Below are positions 35,789-50,547 of a DNA stretch of 64,000 bases, piece by piece. The stretch spans positions 310,001 to 374,000 of the forward strand of contig JAQOWU010000007.1 of assembly GCA_030867685.1 (NCBI GenBank), in the 5' to 3' direction. Positions within the stretch are counted from its first letter, which is position 1, and every line of letters starts with the position of its first letter. This stretch comes from Wickerhamiella versatilis (Eukaryota). The notes beneath the pieces were generated by a model, which had not been told where the DNA came from, ran no database searches, and worked only from the letters and a program-made list of their open reading frames with translations. Position numbers and translations under genes: made by a program.

Positions 35789-37441
35789 ATGTCTATAGAT
35801 CCCGAGTACATTCCTGGTACCGAGAAAATAGTTACGGGAGACAATAAAGGGGGCATCAGTCTTCTCAAGGATGATGATGTGGTCCTGCTGCCCGCGCCTA
35901 CGCTTTCTCCGAACGACCCGTTAAACTGGTCCCGATGGCGAAAATATTGGAATGCTTTTATTCTTTTAGCCTTTCGAGGACTAGGTTCGGCCTGCAGTAA
36001 TGCAGGTTTCGCGCCCGCACCTGTGCTGGTAGAGAAGCTTGGCTTCACTTATGCAGTATTCGACAATATGGCTGCTGTGGTCTTTGCATGCATGGGGGCT
36101 TGGTTATTTCTATCAGCCCCAAGTATATTTCTTTATGGAGGACGACTTCAGTATTTATTTGGCGCTGTCTGTGGTATAATCGGAATGGCTTGGTTCGCAA
36201 ACGTGTCTCATGCCAGAGATATTTACGGGTCACAATTTTTCTTAGGGATCTCTGTATCCTGCACTGAAGCGCCTGTTATTTTGGCATTTTCTCAGGTTTT
36301 CTTTCAGCACCAAATCGATTCCTTGATCGCGATATACGTACTAGCGAGTCTTGTGGGCATGTTCTGCGGACCGTTGATTGCAGGCTATGACGTTTCCGAG
36401 CGTGGCTGGGAATGGGATGGATATGCTGGTTTGATATCTTACGCTATAATTCTCATTCTAGTGGCTTTCGGACTTGAGGAGACTTATTTCGACCGCAACT
36501 ATTTCTCCTCAAGATCCTTAATGGATATCCAACCTGGGGATGATGGCAAGAACGACAGCACAAGTACAAATTTCAACTCTGAAATGAAGCTTTCCAAGAG
36601 CACTAACCAATATAATACCCCTGACGAGGACAAAAGGGATGCTCTACTAGAGTCTGACAACATCAAGTCGTACTGGCAGCGAATTGCCCTGATAACTCCG
36701 GCTTCAAATCTGAGGGGGACTGGATTTAGGCAATATGTAGACCGGCTGTGGCTCCTTCTGCGTGTATTCACTTTCCCACCCGTCATCTTCGCAGGCATAC
36801 AATGGGCGATGCAAATGTCCTGGGTTACATATTATATGACACTTGAGTCTAATTACTGGACTGAATCCCCTTGGAATTATTCTACTTCTAGTGTGGGGAT
36901 TATGTTCGTACCTACCCTTATAGGGGCCTTGGTAGGCTTTATTTATTCATTCTGGGCAGTGAAATGGTTTGTGAAGCGCATGGCTCACCGCAATGGCGGC
37001 GTAATGGAGGCGGAGGTAAGGCTCTGGTGCCTCATTCCTGGGATTATGTCCAGTACAGTCGGACTTATAGTCCTTGGTGTAGGCACGGAGCAAATGTGGG
37101 CATGGCCGGTTCCATACGTGATGTTGGGATTCATTGGCTTTGGCTTCGGATCCTTGGGAGACATCTCGATGGCATATTGTGTTGACTGTTATCCAGATTT
37201 AGTACTTGAGACGATGGTTGCTGTCGCATTCATCTTCGATATCATCTGCGCAGTACTTTCTGTTGTTTGCAGCTATTGGCTTTCAATCGGGCCACAAAAC
37301 ACTTTCATCTCTGTTGGCATGGTAAACTTATTTTTCTGCCTGTGGGCTGTGCCTATGATTTATTTTGGGAAGCGGTGTCGAAAATGGACCCGAGAGACTT
37401 ACTTTGAGTTGGTTAAAAAGCGTGATAGTTACAATGGCTAA
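35789..37441 (+). CDS. MFS transporter, Hol1-like
   Basis: 'YIPGT', 'L.P.P...PNDPLNWS', 'LEETYFDR', 'GVMEAEVRL', 'D.YP...LE.M' typical of Hol1; ATG at 35789. Confidence 0.85.
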   Translation: MSIDPEYIPGTEKIVTGDNKGGISLLKDDDVVLLPAPTLSPNDPLNWSRWRKYWNAFILLAFRGLGSACSNAGFAPAPVLVEKLGFTYAVFDNMAAVVFACMGAWLFLSAPSIFLYGGRLQYLFGAVCGIIGMAWFANVSHARDIYGSQFFLGISVSCTEAPVILAFSQVFFQHQIDSLIAIYVLASLVGMFCGPLIAGYDVSERGWEWDGYAGLISYAIILILVAFGLEETYFDRNYFSSRSLMDIQPGDDGKNDSTSTNFNSEMKLSKSTNQYNTPDEDKRDALLESDNIKSYWQRIALITPASNLRGTGFRQYVDRLWLLLRVFTFPPVIFAGIQWAMQMSWVTYYMTLESNYWTESPWNYSTSSVGIMFVPTLIGALVGFIYSFWAVKWFVKRMAHRNGGVMEAEVRLWCLIPGIMSSTVGLIVLGVGTEQMWAWPVPYVMLGFIGFGFGSLGDISMAYCVDCYPDLVLETMVAVAFIFDIICAVLSVVCSYWLSIGPQNTFISVGMVNLFFCLWAVPMIYFGKRCRKWTRETYFELVKKRDSYNG

Positions 37442-37443
37442 GC

Positions 37444-38094
37444 TCACCCCTGTTGAGCACTAGATTGCTGGACCACCCAGCTACCAGTTAGGATAGTCAT
37501 AGGAGGATGCACCATAATATTAAAGAGTTGTTCATTAAAAAGTCCATTACTAGCCAGGATTGTGGCCGTTTCATGCCCATCCTCATAGCATCCGCGAAAG
37601 AATTTGAAATTTGAACCATCTTTTTCGACTCCTTGGATCCACGTTCCCACGCGGACAATCTTGCCCACGAGATCTTGACCCCTCTTCTTCTCCAGTACCT
37701 GGAATACTATATTCGATAATACTTTATTGCCCCTTGGCATCAATTCACTGCTTTCGGGGTCCATTCTGCGCCATATCTCAATATAGGGTTCAACTCTTTG
37801 AGTAGCTGAGTTAAACATGGAGCCTGTTTCCTTAAGATCTCCGCTTGAGAGTTGTTCGAAATGGCCACTGTCTTCACAGGATTGGCCGTTTGAATCGATC
37901 TCATGAGTGTACACTGTAGTTTGGCCGCTCATTTTCGTCTGCCCACAGAATGCCCACTCTATTTCTTGAGTGCTGTTTTTACGCAGTCTGATATCCACAT
38001 AATGTTTCCCGGGTGATGTCAACACCAAGGTATCAGTATTTTCGGAAGGTTTCTGATCAGACCATTGGATAGAAACCCGTTTTGTGAGGCTCAT
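37444..38094 (-). CDS. HRI1: Hri1-family protein
   Basis: 'RVSIQW....SENTDTLVLT', 'YVDIR', 'WAF.G', 'ETG.M.N......PY.E.W'. Confidence 0.8.
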   Translation of the reverse strand: MSLTKRVSIQWSDQKPSENTDTLVLTSPGKHYVDIRLRKNSTQEIEWAFCGQTKMSGQTTVYTHEIDSNGQSCEDSGHFEQLSSGDLKETGSMFNSATQRVEPYIEIWRRMDPESSELMPRGNKVLSNIVFQVLEKKRGQDLVGKIVRVGTWIQGVEKDGSNFKFFRGCYEDGHETATILASNGLFNEQLFNIMVHPPMTILTGSWVVQQSSAQQG

Positions 38095-38445
38095 TCAACA
38101 AGCCTCCTGTACCCGGGTGGGTTTCAGATGTTCAGTTAGTCATATGTATGGCGACCAGCTGAAGTAGCAGTTTATTCGATCCAATTCATCCACAATAAAT
38201 TAGCATATATCTGGCAGCTCGAAATGCTGCTCCTTGAAAGCTCGGCTCGGCTTGACTGGGACTACCAGAGCGCAGAATCTCTCCCTGGTACAAGCTCGAC
38301 TATGTATAACTTTTTCGCTTTTTTAAACACGCTGCTAGGCTTTTGAAGCACTCAAGACAATTCTCTTTCATTTCAGGGAAAGGAACGAATCCCATCCGAT
38401 AAAGCCCGGTGTGTCATCATTTTTCAGCGGTACGTACCGTCGCTT

Positions 38446-39819
38446 ATGCGGCCCCTTTTGGCCCGCGATTCTATCCAGGATACGCCTCCAATCGCACCAC
38501 GTGAACGTAGACTACTAGTTAAGATTGATGGACTCGTACTTTCGTATGTGTGTCTTATTTATTGGGTCAACTACCTTGACCGTACAAATTTTCAGAATGC
38601 CTACCTCACGGGCCTGAAGGAGACGCTGCAGATGAAGGGCTATGAATACAACATAGTTAATACGTGTTTTACCGTGGGCTATACCGTTGGAATGGTTCCA
38701 AACAACCTGGTGTTGTTGACAGTTTCACCAAGATATTGGTTGTCGTTTTGTGCTCTTGCTTGGGGAGTACTCGTGCTATCCATGTACAAAGCAACCGATT
38801 ACCGCCAGCTCTGTGTGATCAGATTTTTTCAAGCATTATTTGAAAGCTCTACTTTCAGTGGAACGCATTTCATTCTTGGTAACTGGTACCGGGATGACGA
38901 GCTCACCAAACGCTCAGCTATTTTTACGTCGTCTGGTCTTATTGGTTCTATATTTTCTGGCTTCATGCAGTCAAGCATCCACAGCTCGTTGGATGGTCGC
39001 AATGGTCTAGCAGGCTGGCAGTGGCTATTCATAATTGACTTTGTCATTACGGTGCCGATCGCCGTTTACGGATTCTTGTTTTTCCCTGATGTACCTGAAA
39101 GAGCGTCTTGGGTGCTCAGTGTATCAGAGAAGCAGCTCGCGCGCAAGCGGCTTCCTCCCAGAAACCCAACGCACTTAGACTGGACTGTGTTCCGTCGTGT
39201 TCTAGGGCGGTGGCACTGGTGGCTCTTTTCGCTCCTATGGGCGATTGCGGGAGAAAATGAATCTTTCGGTACCAATACTATATTTGGATTATGGCTAAAA
39301 TGGGCTGGCTATTCTTCAGCAGATCGTAACAATTACCCACTTGGAATGTACTCTGTTGGAGTATTAGCCACGCTTCTTTCCGCGCTATATGTGGACTTCT
39401 TTGGCGCTCGATATCATTGGCATGTTGCTATAGTGATATTTGTGTTTATGCTAGCCGCAACGATTATTATCTTGGCCCGGCCCCTGACTGCGTCGGCCGT
39501 GTTTGCCGCTCACTACATGACCGGGGTATCTTATGCGGGCCAAGCTGCGTTTTTTGCGTGGGCAAATGTAGTTTGCTACCGCGATCTCGAGGAGCGCACG
39601 ATTACACTTGCGTCAATGAATATGTTCAGCAGTGCGGTCAATGCATGGTGGTCTATCCTTTTTTACAAGGCCAGTGATGCACCATATTGGCGATCTGGCT
39701 GCTGGGCAATGATCGCTACCTGTATTGCTACGCTGGTCGTGGCAACCACGATACGACTACTCCAGCTTCGCGAGCATGAGTCGGTTGATGACATTAAACG
39801 CCTCGCGAGTGAGCTTTAG
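38446..39819 (+). CDS. FEN2: Pantothenate transporter (MFS, anion:cation symporter family)
   Basis: 'KID..VLSYVCL.YWVNYLDR.N..NAY', 'ESSTFSGTH.ILG.WY...EL.KRSA.FTSSG', 'RWHWWLFS', 'GENE.F'. Confidence 0.88.
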   Translation: MRPLLARDSIQDTPPIAPRERRLLVKIDGLVLSYVCLIYWVNYLDRTNFQNAYLTGLKETLQMKGYEYNIVNTCFTVGYTVGMVPNNLVLLTVSPRYWLSFCALAWGVLVLSMYKATDYRQLCVIRFFQALFESSTFSGTHFILGNWYRDDELTKRSAIFTSSGLIGSIFSGFMQSSIHSSLDGRNGLAGWQWLFIIDFVITVPIAVYGFLFFPDVPERASWVLSVSEKQLARKRLPPRNPTHLDWTVFRRVLGRWHWWLFSLLWAIAGENESFGTNTIFGLWLKWAGYSSADRNNYPLGMYSVGVLATLLSALYVDFFGARYHWHVAIVIFVFMLAATIIILARPLTASAVFAAHYMTGVSYAGQAAFFAWANVVCYRDLEERTITLASMNMFSSAVNAWWSILFYKASDAPYWRSGCWAMIATCIATLVVATTIRLLQLREHESVDDIKRLASEL

Positions 39820-40093
39820 GTCAGGAACCTAATCTGTCAGTATCATATCTATTATTTATGACCACTCTGCTATTTGTAAATAAATAATAATTTGCTCACG
39901 GTACCTTTTAACTTGGGCTTGAATCCTCTCTAGACGGGAAAGTCAGGGGCAGAAGCCGCCGGGGCAATACTCTTTACTTTTAGTGTAACGCTTTTTACGC
40001 CAATCAGGTATTCTACTTCCCGAAATGAGAGCATTGCCCAGGTATCACAAAATTGGCCTTCAGAGACATTCGATGGTCTGTTTGACTCCTGTA

Positions 40094-41260
40094 TCACGAG
40101 ATGCCTGCATTTAGGCCTTCTTTGGCTGGATTGCACCAACAATGCTTACTCTTAGGCTCCCTTGGATATAGAACAAAGTTGCAACGGGGGCAGTAGGCGC
40201 TGTGCTTGCGGTATCGACTTCCACAGGCACCACAAAGCCTTCTATCAGGCTGCCAACTGATAACCCACTGCGAGGATGATGTTCTGTGGCATGAAAGACA
40301 CACGGTTTCTTTTTCGGACGGCTCTTGATCTGGCGGATCGCATTTACGGCACTTAAAAGTCTTGTTTCCCTCCTGATCAACTGTACCTTTTTTGAAATCT
40401 GCCGAGTATGGCACAAACATGCATTTTTTACAATAGTCGTGAAAGGTTTCATAGCGCGCATTGCATGCAACGCACAGTTTTCCCACATCGTTATTCCAAC
40501 TACGCCTCCATCCTCGATGCTCGGTACCGTGACACGAGAGACATTTCATCTCCGGGGCAGCCGGCCTTGGCGTAAAATTCGGCAAATGGACTGTCACTCC
40601 TTTTTCGCATTTGCTACATTTGATAGTCTGATTACCCTGTTCGTCAGGCGGGGCTTTATTCAACTGCGACTTAAATGGAACGTAATTACAGTCGCAGTGC
40701 ACACCCGTTTTCTTCCAGCAAAGACCACAGGGATTGCACAGCTTCTGGCCCGGCACCCAGCTCTGGTGCCAGTCAGAGGTATTACTTTCCCCACATGATA
40801 GGCATATGCGCGGACTATCTTTTTCAGGAGGCGCTGCCCAAACAACAGTGTGTTCATCACCACCTGCTTGACGACTACAAGTAGGGCACGGAAAGAGTTG
40901 CTCCCCCTGCTCTCCATCTTTTACCTTATATTTCATTTTCTCCCACTCTTGGTTGTTCGGAATGAAGCCGCATAATGTGCAGTGCACGGGATGCTTCATG
41001 TGGCGATTGCCGCAGGCATTGCAAAGCACACCTTGTTTGCTATCCCAGCTTGGGCGCCATCTTATAGTCTCGGTAATGCCACAGGCGATGCAGGGTCCCG
41101 AATTTCCAGCTTTTCTACCTTCTGAGCCTGCCTGAAGTCGACCAGCATTTGAGGAGTCGGGGGTTGGACCTGCAACGCTTTGTGGGTCTTGGGCCACATC
41201 ATTATCATCTTCACTCAATACTGGGTTCGAAATTTCCTTTTTCTCATCCTTTTCCCGCAT
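40094..41260 (-). CDS. Zinc-finger repeat ORF with four Ash1/HO-type (GATA-like) modules; either a separate gene or the frameshifted continuation of the HO-like gene
   Basis: Four modules CxxC-x5/6-W..SW-x4/6-LCxxC..R.....HC..C.F.P...CxxC. First ATG at 41260 overlaps the upstream ORF by 46 nt. Confidence 0.75.
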   Translation of the reverse strand: MREKDEKKEISNPVLSEDDNDVAQDPQSVAGPTPDSSNAGRLQAGSEGRKAGNSGPCIACGITETIRWRPSWDSKQGVLCNACGNRHMKHPVHCTLCGFIPNNQEWEKMKYKVKDGEQGEQLFPCPTCSRQAGGDEHTVVWAAPPEKDSPRICLSCGESNTSDWHQSWVPGQKLCNPCGLCWKKTGVHCDCNYVPFKSQLNKAPPDEQGNQTIKCSKCEKGVTVHLPNFTPRPAAPEMKCLSCHGTEHRGWRRSWNNDVGKLCVACNARYETFHDYCKKCMFVPYSADFKKGTVDQEGNKTFKCRKCDPPDQEPSEKETVCLSCHRTSSSQWVISWQPDRRLCGACGSRYRKHSAYCPRCNFVLYPREPKSKHCWCNPAKEGLNAGIS

Positions 41261-44200
41261 TGAAGACAATTAAATAGCCCCTTTTTTCCTGCCTTTTTAA
41301 TCTGGTACTGAAACGGAACGAAATGGCAATATGGCACATCACAGTACATCTCAATATGCTTATAACGGTCTCCACACTGCGGGCATAGTTGACCTGACTC
41401 GTTATCCCAACTAGGCGTCCAGCCCAAGGATACCTGGTGGCAGGACATGCATTTCTTTGTGGTCTTGCTGGGTGAACGCTTCTGTATAGACCCAGTACAC
41501 TCATATCGTGGACAATCACTAGTTACTTCTTCAGACAGCGGGATATACCCACAATCTTGACAGAAACTTCCATGTTCCTCGTACCGGAGATGACACCAAT
41601 TACACTCTTTGCCCTTGCCAATCGGGCTTTGGTGCCAACTGATGGACCGAATCGTACTGCAAGAAATACAAGGGAATGTAGCAGAGGAGCAAGAAGGACA
41701 CGATACGATTTCCCCGTTTAGCTTCCTATATTCTTTTTTGGTCAGCTCTTTTTTACCTGTTGGCGGGATGAAACCACATCCCGTGCAGTGCGATTTGTGG
41801 ACACAAAATCGTGCAGCACATATGCCGCATAGCTTTCCCTCAGTACTGCTCCAGCTTTCCCAGTCTGCTGAACAAGACCTCATGCATGAAATGCATGCTG
41901 CCGGATTTGCACATTTGCATTGCGTCTGTCTGCAGTATGGGACAAACCGGCATTCGCTGCAATAACTCTTACGTTTCTCGTATCGTGTGCCACAAGCCTG
42001 GCATAGCTTCTGGTCAGGATCCCAGCTGGGGAGCCACTGTGCCGATTCTGTGGCTTCGCAGGAAATGCACGCGGTCTTCGGTGTGCACTTTGTGCAAGCC
42101 AATCCTTTCCTAATCTCTGCATCGTATGGCACGAAGTTGCAATTCTTGCAGTAAACTTTATGGCTTTCATACCGCTTGCTACAGGTAACGCACAGTTTAC
42201 CCTCCTCTCCATTCCAACTCCGGCACCATGCGTTGGTCACTAATTTCTGGCAAGAAATACACATGTTTCCCTCGTCAGTGACGATGATCGGATTCTGGCA
42301 CTTACTGCAGTCAAAACTCTTGCGACCTTGTTCGTCAGCCTGTGCCTTGTTTACTTCGGCTTTGAACGGAACGTTTCCACAGTCGCAGTGAATGCCGATT
42401 CTCTTCCACCGCACTCCACATGTATCACATAGCTTCTTCTCCGGGTCCCAGCTCGAAAGAAACCTCGCTACATTTTGCTCTTCGCAGCAAATGCATTTCT
42501 TCCCTGTTTCGCTCTCACTTCTCTTCTGGACTAGTGTGTAACGGCTCGGCTGTGAGCAATTAGGGCATGCAAATACCGGTTCTCCCTGGTTGCTAACTCT
42601 CTCATTCTTCTTGATAAGTTCCCATTGCTCATCGCTAGGGACAAATCCGCACTCAGTGCAATGTACACGATGCTTTCTGTAACGCTTAGAGCACGAGTAG
42701 CATAATTTAGCTTTTTCATTATCCCAACTCGGATACCAATTGTCTGAGTGAGTGCTACATCCAGCGCATTTCCTCCTTTGTAGATTCGTGAATCTCGGTA
42801 CATTTGCCCGGTCAGACCATCCTTCAGCCTTGCGCTCGGCACCCTCCGCCATCATTAGCATGCCACAGGCTAGCACATACTCGAAACTATTTCGCAGCCT
42901 CAGCTTGATCACACGGCCTTTCTTGTGTAGCGGTGTGGCTGCAAACCGAAATTGTTCGGGGCTGCGCTGCCAGTTTTCATCGGACGCCCTCGAGCGCTCA
43001 TCGGGCTTTTTACGGGGTGTCGCAACCCGCGACATGACCCTAAAAAGTGCCTCATCACCACCAAATCTAATAAAGTATGCTTTCTGAAGATCATTCGTTT
43101 CGTCTGCCCATCGGTATACCTTTGCCTCTCTGATGTGCACCCAAGCACTGATCCCGAGCGAACGCGCAATTGCCACAACTCTCATGCACAGCTCTTCGTA
43201 TACTGTTGCGATGCCGTACTCCTTTGACCACTTACTTTTGTAGCCCTTGCTTTCCGTAAGTCCAGCCAGAAACGATTCCCGCCAAGACACGGGGGCCGTT
43301 ATCAACCATTCCGGCGCAGTCTTGGTATGCACTTTTTTCTCATCTTTAATCATCTCTCCACGAATTCCAGAAGCAAGAAAAAGTCTCCACAGCCAGTTTT
43401 TTGTTGTCATGTTACGTCCATAACCTATATAACCATCGTGAATCGCAATCTGTGCGGCATAGTGCCGATGGGGATTCTCTTTCGCAGGAAGTTCTGGCTC
43501 ACCACGTTCTTTAGCAACCTTTCTTGCGGAATTTTGGTTTTTTTCCCATTCCTCTGCCAATCTAGCAGTTTTCTTCGTATGTTCCAGTAATACGGAAAGC
43601 TTTTTACGATCGTCGTCATCCTGATGGGTTAATTGTATTGTGACCCGCTTCTTATTCTGAGGTCCCCAGTATTTCTCTAAGATATCCTGAGGTAGATGGC
43701 CATAGTCAATATCGCAATCAAGGCCCAACTTCTCTGCATACACCGCGAATCTTTTCATGGACTCACTATCTTTGGAGTCGACTGCAATAAACGGAAATTG
43801 CATAAATCCATCGCCAACCCAAGTCCCAGCAAGGTACCAGAACTCATCCAAATTGCTTTCAGGGATATAATGAGATGCCATCTCTTCAAAGGTTTTTCTC
43901 TGTGGACACTTGCACTCCAGCTGGCCGGGACGTGTCTCAAATATACTGGCAGCGATTTTGTTATGCCTCCTCAAGTTGGATTTTGGATTAATTGAATCTA
44001 TATTTGCAGAGATTCGCCTTCTCTCAGCCTCATCCAGCTTATCAGCATTTCTTGGGAGCTGGTATAAAACTAGATCCCTCAGCTCAGAGGACCAGCGGAT
44101 TTCACTGTACGCCTCACCATCAGACTTTCTAGGTATTTTTGCATCAACCTTATCCCGCAATTCTGCCTTGGCCTGTTCTGCATTTGCTGCCAACTGACTC

Positions 44201-45150
44201 GTTCTCGCCTTTGCAGATCCGGCGTAGTATGTTTTCATCGTTGAGGTTTCGCGAGCCTTTGGAAAACTTCTCGTCTCACCATTTCTACCGATTAACGATT
44301 CATGAACGAGCTCGCGGTAAGTTACCTGATACCCTGGGTTCTCACCACCAAGACGGGGGCATGGATTGAGATTTCGTTGCTTCACGGTCACTTTGAATGG
44401 CTGCGATCCTCCTACCACAGCCTTTTGATGACCAAAAATATCATACGTCAGTGCTGTACTATTCCTCGAGACCTCGTAGAGCTCGCTCCATCCAGCCTGT
44501 ACACCTTCCACCTGTTGAGAGACACCATAGCGGTCAAGCACAAAGTCGCCAGCAACGATGTCTTTGGCCATTTTACTACTTCCATCGGCCATTCGTATCC
44601 ATTCGTGTTCCTCCACACCACTAGACAGATCCTCAGGCTCGAAATAATCGTGAAGCAGATTGTTCTCGTGATCCTCCTTGGATCGCTTGGCCCTAATTTC
44701 CTCCTCTTCGAAGATAGACTCAAATATTTCCTCAATTGAGTCCTCCAAAATGACCGTGTCCTCCAAATCCCCCTGCTCATCTTCTGGCTCATCAGAGTCA
44801 ATTACGAAGTCATCAAACAGAGAATACATCACGTTATCGTGTTTTCCACCAAGTTTACCGCTCTGGTTCAAAATTTCAAGATTTCCGCCGGCTCCATCAT
44901 CATTTGCCTCGCCGGAGTCGTTGTTATCGGCAAAGCTGTCGGCAAAGTTCGCGAATGCAACATCCATAGCGTTATTATAATTGCGCTCTTTATACACTAT
45001 GTTTGACCTTGAATTCTCGAGGTGTGGACGTGTGGCCCTGGCCTCCCCTTCGGGTGCGACCTGCGAGCCTGCTGAGCGCTCGGCTCTTTTAGTACCCGCC
45101 GAATTGGAGGGGCACTGCAGAGAGCTACTCGATTCGTTATCTCCCCCCAT
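41215..45150 (-). CDS. HO/WHO-family intein-derived LAGLIDADG protein with seven C-terminal zinc-finger modules
   Basis: Hint-N 'WIRMADGSSKMAKDIVAGDFVL'; LAGLIDADG-1 'WYLAGTWVGDG..PFIAVDSKD'; LAGLIDADG-2 'RESFLAGLTESKGY'; 'IATVY...VAIARSLGISA'; Hint-C 'FEYVLACG'; then HO-like fingers. ATG options at 45150 or 44967. Confidence 0.9.
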   Translation of the reverse strand: MGGDNESSSSLQCPSNSAGTKRAERSAGSQVAPEGEARATRPHLENSRSNIVYKERNYNNAMDVAFANFADSFADNNDSGEANDDGAGGNLEILNQSGKLGGKHDNVMYSLFDDFVIDSDEPEDEQGDLEDTVILEDSIEEIFESIFEEEEIRAKRSKEDHENNLLHDYFEPEDLSSGVEEHEWIRMADGSSKMAKDIVAGDFVLDRYGVSQQVEGVQAGWSELYEVSRNSTALTYDIFGHQKAVVGGSQPFKVTVKQRNLNPCPRLGGENPGYQVTYRELVHESLIGRNGETRSFPKARETSTMKTYYAGSAKARTSQLAANAEQAKAELRDKVDAKIPRKSDGEAYSEIRWSSELRDLVLYQLPRNADKLDEAERRRISANIDSINPKSNLRRHNKIAASIFETRPGQLECKCPQRKTFEEMASHYIPESNLDEFWYLAGTWVGDGFMQFPFIAVDSKDSESMKRFAVYAEKLGLDCDIDYGHLPQDILEKYWGPQNKKRVTIQLTHQDDDDRKKLSVLLEHTKKTARLAEEWEKNQNSARKVAKERGEPELPAKENPHRHYAAQIAIHDGYIGYGRNMTTKNWLWRLFLASGIRGEMIKDEKKVHTKTAPEWLITAPVSWRESFLAGLTESKGYKSKWSKEYGIATVYEELCMRVVAIARSLGISAWVHIREAKVYRWADETNDLQKAYFIRFGGDEALFRVMSRVATPRKKPDERSRASDENWQRSPEQFRFAATPLHKKGRVIKLRLRNSFEYVLACGMLMMAEGAERKAEGWSDRANVPRFTNLQRRKCAGCSTHSDNWYPSWDNEKAKLCYSCSKRYRKHRVHCTECGFVPSDEQWELIKKNERVSNQGEPVFACPNCSQPSRYTLVQKRSESETGKKCICCEEQNVARFLSSWDPEKKLCDTCGVRWKRIGIHCDCGNVPFKAEVNKAQADEQGRKSFDCSKCQNPIIVTDEGNMCISCQKLVTNAWCRSWNGEEGKLCVTCSKRYESHKVYCKNCNFVPYDAEIRKGLACTKCTPKTACISCEATESAQWLPSWDPDQKLCQACGTRYEKRKSYCSECRFVPYCRQTQCKCANPAACISCMRSCSADWESWSSTEGKLCGICAARFCVHKSHCTGCGFIPPTGKKELTKKEYRKLNGEIVSCPSCSSATFPCISCSTIRSISWHQSPIGKGKECNWCHLRYEEHGSFCQDCGYIPLSEEVTSDCPRYECTGSIQKRSPSKTTKKCMSCHQVSLGWTPSWDNESGQLCPQCGDRYKHIEMYCDVPYCHFVPFQYQIKKAGKKGLFNCLQCGKRMRKRKFRTQY

Positions 45151-45566
45151 ATAAATAGCGAAGACTACCGCCAATGTCCCAGGAACGGTGGATTAATATA
45201 GGCTGGTGGGGCCCACAGATTAGGGTTAGGTTATGGATTAGGACTGGGTCTCTTGACGCATGGTCCCTGAATAGGAGAATCACGCGATTTAATCAAGGAA
45301 TTATTGCATAGCATGGATATTCACGTCGTTTAAATATTTTTCCCCCGCTTCTTTGGAAGTGAGGACCACGTGCCCCACGCCTGCGACCCGACTGGCATCA
45401 CACTTATCCTTAAAATAGCACTACGTAATCCACATGCGTTATCAAATTACCTGAGAATTGTTGGATAATGCAAGATAACCCACAATGGTCTCTAGTTAGT
45501 CCTTAGTACCATAAAACTTGCAACCGATATACATCCTAGAGGCTTAATTATTGACTAGCCTAGACT

Positions 45567-47171
45567 TCACATAGCATACCTAAACTCCGGATTCTCGAAA
45601 TCGGTGAGATCCGCAAACTCGGGGTTCTCAATCTCGGGGGGGAGCTTCTCATCCTTCTTGTCGCGGCGCCAGTTGCGCCAAATGTTTAACATTACCAATA
45701 AAACGTTCATTCCTAATGATGCCGCCATGGTGGCGGCCATGCTCTTCTTCCCTGTAGGGTAATTAGGCTCTTCCGACCCCTTAAAAGTCTGGGGACCCAC
45801 GATATTTCCGGCGCTGTACAGAGCCAAAAACAATCCGTTCGTCACAAGTTTTTTGGTGAACCCCCCGGAATTTGACCCAATGTTAGACAAGAAGGCGATC
45901 ATCCCAACCGGGGCTGCCCAGTTCGATGCATAATTTCCGAAGAGCTGCGAGCCAGGGTTGGGCCCCCAGGCAAGCAGGCAATAACAGAGGACTGCTATGG
46001 CATTACACAACACGCAATACACTTGCCGAGTATTCTTGAACACAAACATGGACAAAATCCCGGTGAGCCAACATCCGACGAATTCGGCACCGCCTCCCAC
46101 TAGCGTCATTTTCAGCGAGTCAGGAATCTTTGTGAATCCCAACCCTTCCAAAATAATCGTATTGAAGTTTGTTGAAGCGCCGTTCGGAACATCGGAAAGG
46201 AAGATGTAAAACCCGGCTAGCCAGGTCGCGGGATCATACAATGCCTCCCACACCTGGTACATCTTGATCGTACGAGTACCATAGCCAGCGCTTCCATTGT
46301 GCTCTCGGATGACCTGCACCTGCCACGCACGCTCCTCCTCGCTAAGGAACCATGCCTGCACGGGAGTATCCGGAACGTGAAAATAGAACACAACACTAGT
46401 GACTAGCGTTATTAGGCCCATGGTGAGCATGAGCGCCCGCCAAGAATCCATACTCATAGTTGTGCTTACGCTGAGATTGTAGAACCCCAAGGCAAGTGCT
46501 GTGGCCAGAACTGTACCGAGGCCGTTGAAGCCAAACCAGAGGCAGATCCGGCTGAAATGGGACCGCCGGGGAAACCACTGGGTAGTGATGATGGTAAATG
46601 CCGGTGTGACTACTGACTCGAGAATACCAAGGATCACGCGCGTAGCCACTAATCCAGCGTAGTTCTGGCTTGCGGAGGATACTGTGAGAACAACTGCCCA
46701 TGAGAAGTAGCATATAGATATCACCTTGCTCACGGGGTACCGTTGCAAGATAAATACCATGGGCATGACGCCCACAAGGTATCCAAGGTAGAAACTGCTA
46801 CCAACCCAGGAGTACATTGCACCTTTCATATCGAGATCATCTCTGATTCCCAATACACTGGTACCATTGATGACGGTCTTATCGGCGAACTGGAGGCAGT
46901 AGCACCACCCCATGAAGGTGAATAGATATGCGTCGGCCTTGAAGGCGAGCCGCCGCCGCACATCCGGCGGGACCTCCTGCCCTTCGTGAGAATTATGGGC
47001 ATATTTCAGGGCGATATCGCCCTGTTCGTGCTCTTTCTGGTGGTGGGCGAACCGGTACGAGATCTGCGTCGCGTTGGGATGCAGCTCCGTGGTACGGCCC
47101 TCATCAAAACTGGTCCGCACGACGGTATTGTCGTCGCCTTTTTCCACACTGTCCAGTTTCTCGGAAGACAT
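45567..47171 (-). CDS. Allantoate/dipeptide permease (Dal5 family MFS)
   Basis: 'CYCLQFADK', 'YSWVGSSFYLGY', 'AWFLS.EER', 'N.GG.TKK', 'GNIVGPQTF', C-terminal 'EFADLTDFENPEFRY'. Confidence 0.92.
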   Translation of the reverse strand: MSSEKLDSVEKGDDNTVVRTSFDEGRTTELHPNATQISYRFAHHQKEHEQGDIALKYAHNSHEGQEVPPDVRRRLAFKADAYLFTFMGWCYCLQFADKTVINGTSVLGIRDDLDMKGAMYSWVGSSFYLGYLVGVMPMVFILQRYPVSKVISICYFSWAVVLTVSSASQNYAGLVATRVILGILESVVTPAFTIITTQWFPRRSHFSRICLWFGFNGLGTVLATALALGFYNLSVSTTMSMDSWRALMLTMGLITLVTSVVFYFHVPDTPVQAWFLSEEERAWQVQVIREHNGSAGYGTRTIKMYQVWEALYDPATWLAGFYIFLSDVPNGASTNFNTIILEGLGFTKIPDSLKMTLVGGGAEFVGCWLTGILSMFVFKNTRQVYCVLCNAIAVLCYCLLAWGPNPGSQLFGNYASNWAAPVGMIAFLSNIGSNSGGFTKKLVTNGLFLALYSAGNIVGPQTFKGSEEPNYPTGKKSMAATMAASLGMNVLLVMLNIWRNWRRDKKDEKLPPEIENPEFADLTDFENPEFRYAM

Positions 47172-47787
47172 AGACTGAGGAATGGTTGGCGGGGAGCCTT
47201 ATCGGGAACTAATTGGTGAAATTTATTATGTAATTGGCGTTGATAAGGGTGATTCAATTAACCGCGGCGCCCCGCGTAATAAATTGGTAACGTGTGAACT
47301 AGTTTGTATATTGGTCCCAGGAAAACCCTTTCATGTCTAATATTCGCTTGCGAATTATTTTACATCGATACTGCTACTGGAAAACTCTCACGTCGAGTTG
47401 CGACTAGCCGCCCGTACTGCAGGCCTATCCGAGAGGTTAGGGTACTTGTCTCAACGAGGCAACTAGTCGGCACAGTGGCTATTCTAGCTCCAGTTCTCTG
47501 GTCTGTTATCAGGCTTATGGTCTATGAGCTTTCCAAAACTTGGACAAAGTAAACTATGGCCATGCTATCCTGAGTAATAATCAAACCGACCCATGACCTA
47601 ATATATAGTGGCTGGATAATGGCCACACGTCGCGACCATCATTTTCTATATCTCATAAGTTAGGACCAATGCAAAATAGCCACTAGCCATAACCAGGTTC
47701 ATCAGATGGCTCGGATAATGTGCTGGTTAGATCATTTGCGATGTATGCCTTCGCGACTACCACTTGCAGGGCCGATGGTCTAGGTGC

Positions 47788-48747
47788 TCACGGCCTAGGC
47801 AGGAACTGCTCATACCTCAAAACAACATCCTTCCAGTGCTCTGGCTTGCGCCCCGTGAGCTTCTCAACATCGTTAGTCGGGTGAATCATGAATTGCTTCG
47901 CGAGCATCTCCCCACAGCATGTCAAGTCATTCATGCATAGCTTCATGGGCAGCTTCGAGAAGTCGCCGGTCGCGGCATCCCATGGTAATCCCTTGGAGTC
48001 CCACCATCTGATCAGCCACTCGTCAGGGACGTCGACAAATTCGCCCCGGTACCCGGTGTGGTCACAGATGAACTCGAATACCTCCTGATCGGTAACCGCC
48101 TCGGGGCCCGTTAGATGGTAGACCGTGTTCGGCTTCCCCTTGCCAAGCATCAATGCCCCAAACACCCTGCCACAGTCGTCCCGGGACACATATGCACCGG
48201 GCTGGCCGTGCGTGATATTGAACCACTTGTTGCCGCAGAATTTCCAGCTCGGGGCAAATAGGGTGGGCAGGTTATCGGCATACAGGTAATCCCGCTGGAA
48301 GTTCCATTGCAGGCCGGAATTACGGACGATTTTTTCGATGGATGCATGGTCGCGGGGTAAAAACGGGACCTCGTACTCCGACTTGACCACCTCGCCAAGA
48401 CCTGCGCCAATGAACGACGTGTAGCACACCCGCTTGACCCCTGCCGCCTTGGCGGCCTCAACAATGTTTGCAGCCTGCTGGGCGCGGCTTCCAAATGCCC
48501 AGGTTGAAATGAATCCCACCGCCTTGGCCCCGGCGAACACCTTTTTCATTCCCTCGATGTCCCCGTAGTCCACCCGCTCGAGGTTGATTCCGCTAGAGTT
48601 CCACAATTGTTGCGTTGCAGCGTCAATTGACTCTGGCTTATAGCTTCCAAACACAATCTCCTGGTGGGACTGCCGATTCTCCAGCATCCATTGCGCAGCA
48701 ACTCCGCCCAGATGGCCGTCAACCCCAGTGAGAACTAATTTTGTCAT
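47788..48747 (-). CDS. NmrA-like/atypical SDR NAD(P)H-binding oxidoreductase
   Basis: 'VLTGVDGHLG', 'AAKAAGVKR..YTS', 'DH...E', 'VSRDD', 'LTGPE', 'VEKLTGR.P'. Confidence 0.85.
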   Translation of the reverse strand: MTKLVLTGVDGHLGGVAAQWMLENRQSHQEIVFGSYKPESIDAATQQLWNSSGINLERVDYGDIEGMKKVFAGAKAVGFISTWAFGSRAQQAANIVEAAKAAGVKRVCYTSFIGAGLGEVVKSEYEVPFLPRDHASIEKIVRNSGLQWNFQRDYLYADNLPTLFAPSWKFCGNKWFNITHGQPGAYVSRDDCGRVFGALMLGKGKPNTVYHLTGPEAVTDQEVFEFICDHTGYRGEFVDVPDEWLIRWWDSKGLPWDAATGDFSKLPMKLCMNDLTCCGEMLAKQFMIHPTNDVEKLTGRKPEHWKDVVLRYEQFLPRP

Positions 48748-48853
48748 GTGGTGGGATTATTATGGGCTAACATTAATTTTATATTTTAAAATTAGGTCGT
48801 GTTTCTCGTACCCCACACCGCTGGCCGAGGAAGCCTGCCGAGGGAGAATTGCG

Positions 48854-49327
48854 ATGTCAGCGCCTGCGCCAGGGTGGTCTGCGAAGAAGTACAGAGAGCT
48901 GTCCCTAGACGAGCTGTATGCCCTTCTAAAACTACGTTCGGACGTGTTTGTGGTTGAGCAGGCCTGTGCGTACCCTGATATAGATGGGGCAGATCGTACA
49001 GAGGAAGTGGTTCACCTGATGGACTACGACGATAGCACGGCCACTATGCGGCGCTACGCCCGCCTCGATGTGGACGGGAATGATGGAGCCGTCCACATAG
49101 GCCGGGTGGTGGTGTCACCAGCAGTGAGAGGTAAGGGCCAGGGACGCGAACTTGTGGCCCGCGCGGTGCAGGAGGCGGAGAGCAGGTGGCCGGGCCGCGA
49201 GCTGAGGCTAGCCGCCCAGACATATGCGCAGAAGCTCTACTCTGGTCAGGGATTTGTTGTGTCAGGCCCTGTATTCTTGGAGGATGGCATCGAGCATGTC
49301 CACATGGCCCGCGCGGCCTCGAAATAG
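48854..49327 (+). CDS. ElaA-family GNAT acetyltransferase
   Basis: 'ELYALLKLRSDVFVVEQACAYPDIDG', 'IGRVVVS...RGKG.G', 'L.AQ', 'FLEDGIEH..M' match bacterial ElaA; ATG at 48854. Confidence 0.92.
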   Translation: MSAPAPGWSAKKYRELSLDELYALLKLRSDVFVVEQACAYPDIDGADRTEEVVHLMDYDDSTATMRRYARLDVDGNDGAVHIGRVVVSPAVRGKGQGRELVARAVQEAESRWPGRELRLAAQTYAQKLYSGQGFVVSGPVFLEDGIEHVHMARAASK

Positions 49328-49332
49328 AAGGT

Positions 49333-50547
49333 CTATTTCTGGCATTGGTGAGCAAACTTACGATGGCTGAATGGCTGGGGGAACATCTCATATTTAATTA
49401 GCCGGCGAAGATCCCATTCAATTGTGCTCTCCGTTTTGTACGACCAGAAAATCCAGCCGTGTCCCGTCTGCTCGAACTTGTCGAGCTGAGCCTCCACGTA
49501 CCTGCGCATGTCGTCCCGTCGTTGGTCAGACCACTCGGATATATCGTCGACTCCTCGACAATACTCCAGCTGGTTGAAAAGCTCGCGGAGAACAGGCGTG
49601 CTGTTGATGGTGTCGCACTGGCTTCGACTCGCCGACCACTCGCCCACGAAGTGCGGCCGCGTATCGTTGGTAAACACCATTTGATCGGAGCACACGCCCT
49701 CAACTGCCTGGGAAATCGGCCCTGGCTCACTGTTCAGAGACGTCTGGTAGTAATGGTAATCGATAGCCACCCGGCTGTCATTCGCAAACCAGGAGTACTT
49801 AGGAGTCAGAAAGAAGTCATTGATGACGGGCGTAATCGATTCTGGCAAGTTCGACACAAGGTATGCGTAGAATTCATAGAGCCGCTTGTCATATTCAGCC
49901 TCGGTTATTCGGTACGCCTGGGAGAACGGCAGGTTTGTCGCGAAGTAGTCGGGGCTTATGGGCTCATTTAACAGCTCCACGGCTGCCACAACGCCATTCC
50001 ACTCTGGCCCTTCGTACCTCTCCGCGATTTGCAGCAAAATCTCCGCAGTCTCGTCCACCGTGGTGCTATTCTCTATCCACGGGGTGCCCGGAATGTCCAA
50101 ATCGTTCCAATTGGCAACCCCTCCGGGTGGGATATGTAAGTCTATCATGGCGTGGATGTTGTATTTCCCGGCCCACTTCAGGGCGCGGTCAAGATACGGC
50201 AGCTGGCCCTGGACAAATGGGTCCCCGGGTTTCTCGAGGAATGCCCAGTACCCCACGGGTATCCGCACAACATTAATGCCCCAGTCATGCATCTTCTTGA
50301 AGTCGTCCTCCTGAATCCAGGTATCCCAATGGTGCTCAAGCAGTTCTTGCGACCTGCTCTTCCCCAAACTCTTGGTGAGGGAGTACTCCGTCTGTCCACT
50401 GGTATTGGCAAATAACGAGGGAACCATATAGCGTTCGAGAACGAACCAGGAGCCGAGGTTCGCACCACGTATCTCGGAGAGACTGAAATTGAACGCAATT
50501 GTTTTGGCTAGTAAGGCTGCCATTGCCATGGCCGAAGCGGATTTCAT
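49333..50547 (-). CDS. Secreted GH5 exo-1,3-beta-glucanase (Exg1-like)
   Basis: 'RGANLGSWFVLE', 'VRIPVGYW', 'IDLH', acid/base 'LNEP', 'DYHYY', nucleophile 'VGEWS', 'GWIFWSYKTE'. Confidence 0.92.
   Translation of the reverse strand: MKSASAMAMAALLAKTIAFNFSLSEIRGANLGSWFVLERYMVPSLFANTSGQTEYSLTKSLGKSRSQELLEHHWDTWIQEDDFKKMHDWGINVVRIPVGYWAFLEKPGDPFVQGQLPYLDRALKWAGKYNIHAMIDLHIPPGGVANWNDLDIPGTPWIENSTTVDETAEILLQIAERYEGPEWNGVVAAVELLNEPISPDYFATNLPFSQAYRITEAEYDKRLYEFYAYLVSNLPESITPVINDFFLTPKYSWFANDSRVAIDYHYYQTSLNSEPGPISQAVEGVCSDQMVFTNDTRPHFVGEWSASRSQCDTINSTPVLRELFNQLEYCRGVDDISEWSDQRRDDMRRYVEAQLDKFEQTGHGWIFWSYKTESTIEWDLRRLIKYEMFPQPFSHRKFAHQCQK

Follow-up and report, generated by a model that had tools for sequence, protein, structure and literature searches.

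The joining of an intein-like LAGLIDADG endonuclease to a zinc finger has been described for the HO and WHO proteins, and two accounts, both from the laboratory that found the WHO elements, give this layout as known only there (Coughlan et al., 2020, PMC7282813; Osborne et al., 2026, preprint). The WHO elements of Torulaspora and Lachancea are described as homing elements that lie downstream of FBA1, together with FBA1 3' fragments, and that carry 3–5 Cys-X-X-Cys motifs (PMC7282813). For PI-SceI (VDE), Asp-218 and Asp-326 are described as metal-binding residues critical for activity, and in inactive VMA1 endonucleases these two residues are reported to be mostly gone (PMC1508164). Here we analysed a stretch of 64,000 nucleotides of Wickerhamiella versatilis (contig JAQOWU010000007.1 of assembly GCA_030867685.1, forward-strand positions 310,001 to 374,000; hereafter the window, whose own numbering is used throughout), in which an open reading frame (ORF) on the minus strand (41215–45150, 1311 codons plus stop, ATG at 45150) encodes an HO-like protein with a lysine in place of the second catalytic aspartate. 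The reading that we favour, held tentatively and with a little short of even confidence, is that this copy cannot make double-strand breaks, still binds DNA and is under relaxed selection.

Translation of the minus strand at 43243–43269 gives LAGLTESKG, the second LAGLIDADG motif, with the Lys codon AAG at 43246–43248, and the first motif (YLAGTWVGDG, 43807–43836) retains its Asp (codon 43810–43812), so that translation and codon coordinates agree with what the original prediction had described. Its claim that the Lys occupies the second metal-ligand position was also borne out. In a phmmer search against PDB sequences 'flaglteskgy' pairs with 'flaglidsdgy' of PI-SceI (best chain E 8.7e-14), which sets the Lys against Asp-326, the 'TES' Glu against Asp-324 and the motif-1 Asp against Asp-218 (PI-SceI residue numbers obtained by counting on chain 1dfa/1vde onward from 275, the printed start); an alignment of 30 rows and the end of the corresponding helix in an AlphaFold model point to the same position. 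An acidic residue is thus present at the end of the first of the two LAGLIDADG helices (Asp) and absent from the end of the second (Lys). An origin of the Lys codon in a sequencing or assembly error is hardly credible: the same assembly does have a homopolymer-length difference at 41238–41242, but the same Lys is carried by P0002, in which this gene was assembled independently and which differs from the window at E301K and in that T run, and AAG is two base changes away from any Asp codon (GAT or GAC), and for these two reasons we do not regard it as a read error.

The AlphaFold model, computed for residues 180–800 with the 30-row alignment, reached a mean pLDDT of 88.1 and a pTM of 0.88, and PI-SceI chains make up all ten of its best structure matches in the PDB (E 1.6e-29 to 4.5e-25, TMt 0.79–0.83; 1jva_B, E 1.6e-29, TMt 0.82). 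The protein is accordingly predicted to have the PI-SceI fold, in which the two central helices (260–276 and 450–464 in model numbering) end, on their C-terminal sides, at the motif-1 Asp (276) and at the Lys (464). The search of the ESM Atlas gave a best score of 0.79, to be taken as a lead only, with matches that all belong to generic LAGLIDADG or intein clusters. Apart from the substituted ligand, the active site is intact, as the equivalents of Asp-218, Asp-229, Lys-301, Thr-341 and Lys-403 of PI-SceI are all retained in the phmmer alignment. Christ et al., in 1999, are said to have described the roles of Asp-229, Lys-301, Thr-341 and Lys-403.

Another acidic residue could in principle bind the metal in place of the lost Asp, in which case the protein would still be a double-strand endonuclease. 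The Glu of 'TES', two residues ahead of the Lys, is the obvious candidate, and some LAGLIDADG enzymes do have a Glu ligand, as reported for E117 of I-DmoI (PMC3384342). However, this Glu, whose placement at the catalytic position would have spoken against the original prediction, stands opposite Asp-324 and not Asp-326; two residues along a helix, it would be expected to face the other way. It is also kept in all eight full family members that have motif 2, those that keep the Asp included, and in the VMA1 intein P0023; since it is found in members that retain the Asp, it is not compensatory. We consider a retained double-strand activity very unlikely.

Judged from the sequence, the loss of double-strand cutting is very likely, because a ligand is lost, because the two sites of such enzymes often share a central metal (PMC3017599) and because the loss of Asp marks inactive VMA1 endonucleases. 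The exchange of Asp for Lys would remove one of the two acidic metal ligands and bring a positive charge to the metal-binding place. What may be left is a natural nickase, whose first site cuts one strand and whose Lys site cuts none, so that recombination would start from a nick. Monomeric LAGLIDADG enzymes have one site for each strand, and nicking is reported for variants of I-AniI and I-SceI altered at one site (PMC3017599); in the window protein all residues of the first site are kept, as are the Lys and Thr partners of the second. Nevertheless, the published nickases (I-AniI K227M, I-SceI K122I/K223I), which resemble the window protein in that one of two sites is disabled, are man-made and were obtained by altering peripheral Lys or Gln residues, not the metal-binding acid (PMC3017599), and, because the two sites often share the central metal, the loss of one Asp commonly stops both. 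For these reasons we regard a complete loss of cutting as likelier than nicking, and, as the Lys is conserved in no relative and is hence no family trait, a natural nickase appears improbable to us.

The nuclease is one part of a composite protein, all of it on the minus strand. The ORF opens with an acidic N-terminal extension of approximately 180 residues (44611–45150), which has no match to intein or HO and is 67% identical to that of a sister copy described below. It is followed by the N-terminal part of the Hint domain together with the DNA-recognition region (43861–44610), by the two-motif LAGLIDADG endonuclease domain (42991–43860; Pfam Hom_end, PF05204, E 7.5e-19), by the C-terminal part of Hint (42781–42990) and by seven zinc-finger units (41215–42768). 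The Hint fold is present, since the model can be aligned with PI-SceI over the entire chain, domain I being covered too (1gpp, E 9.3e-10 for that domain), with a Pfam Hom_end_hint match of 21.6 bits, under its cut-off of 32.1. The alignment columns that hold the splicing residues of inteins are occupied otherwise: there is no Cys at the start of Hint (EEHEW-IRMADGS, against C/FAKGT-VLMADGS in VMA1 inteins), and the terminal His-Asn and Cys are replaced (…MMAEGAERK, against …VHNC). The protein has thus the layout of HO and WHO, a non-splicing intein-like region fused to C-terminal zinc fingers of the HO type.

Each finger unit consists of a GATA-like C-x2-C…C-x2-C finger followed by [HY]C-x2-C-x-[FY][VI]P … C-x2-C. 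A second ORF, of 388 residues from its own ATG (40094–41260, minus strand), lies downstream and encodes a linker of approximately 50 residues and units 8–11 (Pfam GATA, E 6e-18), so that the complete array is formed by seven units, the linker and four more units, which duplicate units 1–4. The Pfam GATA match on the C-terminal part of the 1311-codon ORF is weak and sub-threshold, and, at E ≤ 0.001, Pfam GATA does not report the fingers of P0035, P0031 and P0046, proteins that we labelled from their architecture only: P0035 as HO-like (583 residues, Hint and Hom_end, one finger), P0031 and P0046 as WHO-like (two fingers). We built a profile from 21 units, drawn from five members of the family; it covers the one C-terminal finger of P0035 from end to end (36.2 bits) and matches, more weakly, the two units of P0031 and of P0046 (16–17 bits).

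The two ORFs are joined in P0002 (1685 residues). Of its first 1304 residues, 1303 are the same as in the window ORF, with E301K as the single difference, its last 382 residues are identical to the product of the downstream ORF, and it continues in that frame solely because the T5 run at 41238–41242 (A5 on the coding strand) is one base longer. We compared contigs of four public runs (X13, X7, X17 and X20) with the region and found the extra T, placed behind 41237, at a depth of 12.2 of 12.2 in X13, 38.3 of 74.3 in X7, 3.9 of 3.9 in X17, where depth is low, and 0 of 13.6 in X20. As P0002, the contigs of X13, X7 and X17 and the array fragments P0049 and P0050 have the in-frame junction, the fused form of 1685 codons is the older state, and the T5 of the window is either a derived frameshift of this strain or a homopolymer error of this assembly. 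The uninterrupted ORF of about 1300 codons in the original prediction does exist, with no stop over the 1304 codons, but it is the frameshift-truncated form of a longer one. At 42208 the window has a T where every contig there, in all four runs, has a C, a letter private to this assembly.

Several shorter sequences of the array were also noticed. A search for the array among shorter proteins returned six matches, all of them array fragments, and no clear full-length gene without the intein. P0048 has lost units 5–7 in frame, the start of unit 5 being followed at once by the linker, and P0049 has a start like that of the window copy and an end like that of the sister copy; together they suggest recombination between units or copies, or chimeric assemblies. 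P0051 (584 residues, on a contig of 2.7 kb) starts with 95 unrelated residues, is then colinear with units 2–7 and ends right after unit 7; it may represent either part of a frameshifted gene or a gene for an array that has no intein.

The intein part was used in a HMMER search of 1.84 billion representatives, which returned 36 matches at E ≤ 1e-3, 12 at 1e-10 and 6 at 1e-30. The family proper comprises P0003, P0004/P0014, P0015, P0016, P0013 and P0017, with the fragments P0018–P0021; the matches beyond it are VMA1 inteins and other inteins. All full-length members have an N-terminal extension of conserved length, about 115–370 residues, before the Hint block, at which the HO-like P0035 begins directly. 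A tree of the intein part, calculated from 25 rows and 450 columns, unites the family in one clade (100/100) with a long stem, and inside this clade the window copy and P0003 are sister to P0015 and P0013. The unconstrained tree does not settle how the family is related to the HO-like, WHO-like and VMA1 rows, and forcing it together with the HO-like and WHO-like rows costs 3.75 log-likelihood units (p-AU 0.41), which neither rejects nor shows such a clade. We also observed further eukaryote-like proteins of the PI-SceI type, namely an intein inside P0024, a Cys-rich protein of 972 residues that is not VMA1, and three proteins without VMA1 flanks (P0036, P0045 and P0047) that form a clade of their own (100/99).

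The Lys is not conserved among the relatives. In the 30-row alignment the motif-2 column holds Asp in 21 of the 27 rows that cover it, six of the nine family rows and the sister copy P0003 included; the remaining rows have Lys (the window copy alone), Thr (P0015), Tyr (P0013), Asn (P0029), Ser (P0030) and Ala (P0042). The motif-1 Asp is present in 21 of 26 rows and is replaced by Gly in P0015 and P0013, and P0029 has Asn at both positions. P0013 and P0015 have thus neither Asp and are 33% identical over approximately 700 residues, yet they have ORFs of 706 and 896 residues, which indicates that family members without the catalytic residues can persist for long.

The same runs contain a second copy of the gene, about 80% identical, that keeps the motif-2 Asp and is of the P0003 type. 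In all four runs the gene is covered both by contigs at least 99% alike and by contigs less than 90% alike. Numbers of contigs at 99% or more, 95–99%, 90–95% and less than 90% are 15, 2, 9 and 15 in X13, a run labelled as a single organism, 15, 0, 3 and 7 in X7, 17, 1, 2 and 13 in X17, and 1, 6, 2 and 10 in X20. Among the 35 differences listed for the diverged contig, 15 window codons are changed synonymously and 17 nonsynonymously, and in 15 of these 17, again among the differences listed, the new residue is that of P0003; the two mismatches may come from unlisted rows or from strain differences. On a contig of 73.6 kb in X7, a copy of 40600–41808 that is approximately 85% alike lies 60.6 kb to the left of the near-identical copy. 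This second finger region probably belongs to the Asp-bearing sister gene P0003 and, because both are on that one contig, the two copies are probably on one chromosome, the second one outside the window. Searches of the window by tblastn with P0003, P0004 and P0035 found no further copy. X20 ('organism B') has a copy approximately 98% alike (for example, 17 differences over 1076 bases), without the extra T, and a diverged copy; it may be a sister lineage.

The diverged copy has gaps of one base from 41740 on, which match the end of P0003, and P0050, P0052 and P0053 are pieces of its array further downstream. As these gaps lie in the diverged copy, it is the Asp-bearing copy that has a broken array and the Lys-bearing copy that has a full one. 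Non-coding DNA of the window at 45170–45283, upstream of the ORF, matches residues 1–38 of the P0003 gene model in another frame (79%); the P0003 model thus probably starts too early and, since the similarity continues upstream to 45283, the duplicated segment extends past the ATG.

The original prediction also proposed that the ORF is maintained for a function other than double-strand cutting, and had named a ratio of nonsynonymous to synonymous substitution rates (dN/dS) near 1 as an outcome that would speak for decay. We estimated this ratio between the window copy and the diverged copy on six contig pieces, from the totals of differences on the contigs minus the minimal nonsynonymous changes required by the protein differences to P0003. 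Values of approximately 0.32–0.36 were obtained for the N-terminal half (43840–44851), 0.21–0.23 for the nuclease domain and 0.10 for 42605–42892, with an overall dS of 0.34–0.90; as these are pairwise averages over both copies, made with no codon alignment, selection before the exchange of Asp for Lys is inseparable in them from selection after it. The range is not that of neutral drift and, on this comparison of sequences, constraint has acted on the reading frame over most of the time that it has existed. Maintenance for a non-cutting function is supported by this range and by the long ORFs of the Asp-less P0013 and P0015; it is not supported by the Lys, which no relative conserves, by the ORF cut short in the window or by the erosion visible in both copies.

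These observations leave room for a different explanation, in which the family is, or once was, a selfish, WHO-like homing element and this copy, recently disabled by the exchange of Asp for Lys, is now a functionless, decaying relic and has its frame open only for lack of time. The clusters of WHO genes are described as mixtures of intact and broken copies (PMC7282813), and the sister copy is frameshifted at about 41740 and beyond, with P0050 and P0053 as array fragments on its contig; the window allele is frameshifted too, and P0048 is a deletion variant. In VMA1 endonucleases that are inactive, the Asp has usually been lost (PMC1508164). By the genetic code, a route from Asp through Glu to Lys would need a single disabling step, so that the Lys can be young. 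The window copy has, furthermore, a terminal branch 1.6 times that of P0003 (0.14 against 0.089) and, at sites where at least four outgroups (all but at most one) agree, it has seven derived replacements, mostly radical (E>K, G>E, W>S, G>S, L>I, S>C and E>K), against six mild ones in P0003.

For the reading favoured here, which includes a retained DNA-binding role, this long branch and these radical replacements are adverse, and so are the broken array of the sister copy with the further array fragments in the genome, the loss of units 8–11 from the window's own allele through the T5 frameshift, and the averaging over both copies, and over the time before and after the substitution, that is inherent in the dN/dS values. 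Also unfavourable are the Gly common to P0013 and P0015, which could be convergent, and the records of the 24 listed runs, none of which is on record as RNA. On the other side, a decaying relic is difficult to reconcile with the approximate dN/dS of 0.10–0.36 (0.21–0.23 in the nuclease domain), with the intact state of the other active-site and fold residues in a confident model and with the 1304 codons without stop. The stretch is, moreover, present in 20 of the 24 runs listed, which come from 12 studies and are for the most part metagenomes of food fermentations; the relatives without both Asp keep their ORFs at 33% identity, and no duplicated fragment of a neighbouring gene occurs within 36000–50000. 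We hold a functionless relic to be a possible but rather doubtful explanation.

The protein which, on the reading that we favour, binds DNA but makes no double-strand breaks is a VMA1-type, intein-derived protein that does not splice, made of Hint, the DNA-recognition region and the two-motif nuclease, to which the extension of 180 residues at the N-terminus and tandem zinc fingers of the HO type (seven, a linker and four) are fused. It is one of at least two diverged copies in the genome of this yeast and belongs to a small family whose two domain types are both common to HO and WHO. A long and specific DNA site would probably still be bound through the saddle of the nuclease, the DNA-recognition region and the fingers, and the persistence of the frame under purifying selection that looks relaxed would fit a DNA-binding role without cutting. 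The candidate roles are those of a regulator or of a blocker of the site that the Asp-bearing copy cuts; P0013 and P0015, in which both Asp would have been lost long ago, offer a parallel.

HO, the endonuclease of mating-type switching in Saccharomyces and close genera, which cuts the MAT locus and occurs in species with silent cassettes, is close in layout, with an intein-derived region that lacks the residues for splicing, a pair of LAGLIDADG motifs and, at the C-terminus, a zinc finger to which, as judged from P0035, the unit profile of the family aligns over its full length. However, HO has one finger, no N-terminal extension and both Asp, whereas the window protein has 7 + 4 units, an extension of 180 residues and the Lys; identity in the intein part is about 19–25%, and no MAT context was seen within the window. 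WHO shares with the family the fusion of intein and zinc finger, the presence of several diverged copies in a genome, some intact and some broken, and a rapid divergence. It differs in that HO and WHO start at the intein-like region, which in this family comes after the extension, and in its 3–5 Cys-X-X-Cys motifs (PMC7282813), compared with 11 finger units here; in addition, no aldolase domain, as expected of FBA1, was found among the 27 window ORFs of at least 250 residues, those under 250 residues not having been scanned. The only repeats within 36000–50000 are the finger units, with no fragments of host genes and no inverted repeats, unlike the gene-fragment duplicates of WHO loci, and the family forms a separate clade on a long stem.

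PI-SceI itself has the same fold and the same layout of the active site, but the window protein is encoded outside VMA1, has neither Cys1 nor the His-Asn/Cys end and carries zinc fingers. The inactive VDEs, in which the loss of Asp-218 or Asp-326 is usual (PMC1508164) and of which P0029, with Asn at both, is an example, have Asn, Ser or Ala at these positions and not Lys. A further likeness is found in WhiA/DUF199 and the LAGLIDADG maturases, domesticated proteins in which the fold is kept, the acidic ligands are lost and DNA is not cut: WhiA of T. maritima is described as having Arg and Gly at the two acidic positions, as not cutting DNA and as being tethered to a separate DNA-binding domain (PMC3384342). 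Those are, in contrast, old and conserved families from which both ligands and the peripheral basic residues have gone, whereas here one ligand is changed, in one copy, with the peripheral residues intact.

We considered whether these proteins form a third, so far undescribed branch of the HO/WHO superfamily, in which the nuclease stands between a true N-terminal segment and a long finger array of the HO type and in which the catalytic Asp was lost at least twice independently with the frames kept; homing-type nucleases might in this way have become sequence-specific DNA binders with long arrays or, alternatively, a pair of cutter and blocker in one genome. We put this forward as a possibility that is on balance unlikely. 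Our literature search found no other description of this layout, though relatives could be among the WHO families and loci listed in the supplements of Coughlan et al. The layout of the proposed branch corresponds to the ancestor predicted by Coughlan et al., in which an intein had mis-homed close to the 5' end of a zinc-finger gene (PMC7282813). The family bears on the origin of HO. It would also widen the HO/WHO set by proteins that have as many as 11 finger units, are extended at the N-terminus and occur in several copies within one genome, and provide natural cases in which catalytic residues are lost and the frame is kept, which could show how a selfish nuclease becomes a DNA-binding protein of the host. 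Within this wider family the Lys is one event in a single copy, of modest interest alone.

The window around the gene is gene-dense, with 46% G+C, and its genes include those of seven major facilitator superfamily (MFS) transporters, GH3, GH5 and GH43 glycosidases, PNGase A, a mannitol dehydrogenase, a PIR wall protein and a GPR1/FUN34 protein, a content that looks like that of a chromosome-end region. A scan of the window for tRNA genes found none. In 25 neighbouring ORFs CTG is used 17.9 times per 1000 codons and, because the codon is this common, the yeast is not a reader of CUG as Ser.

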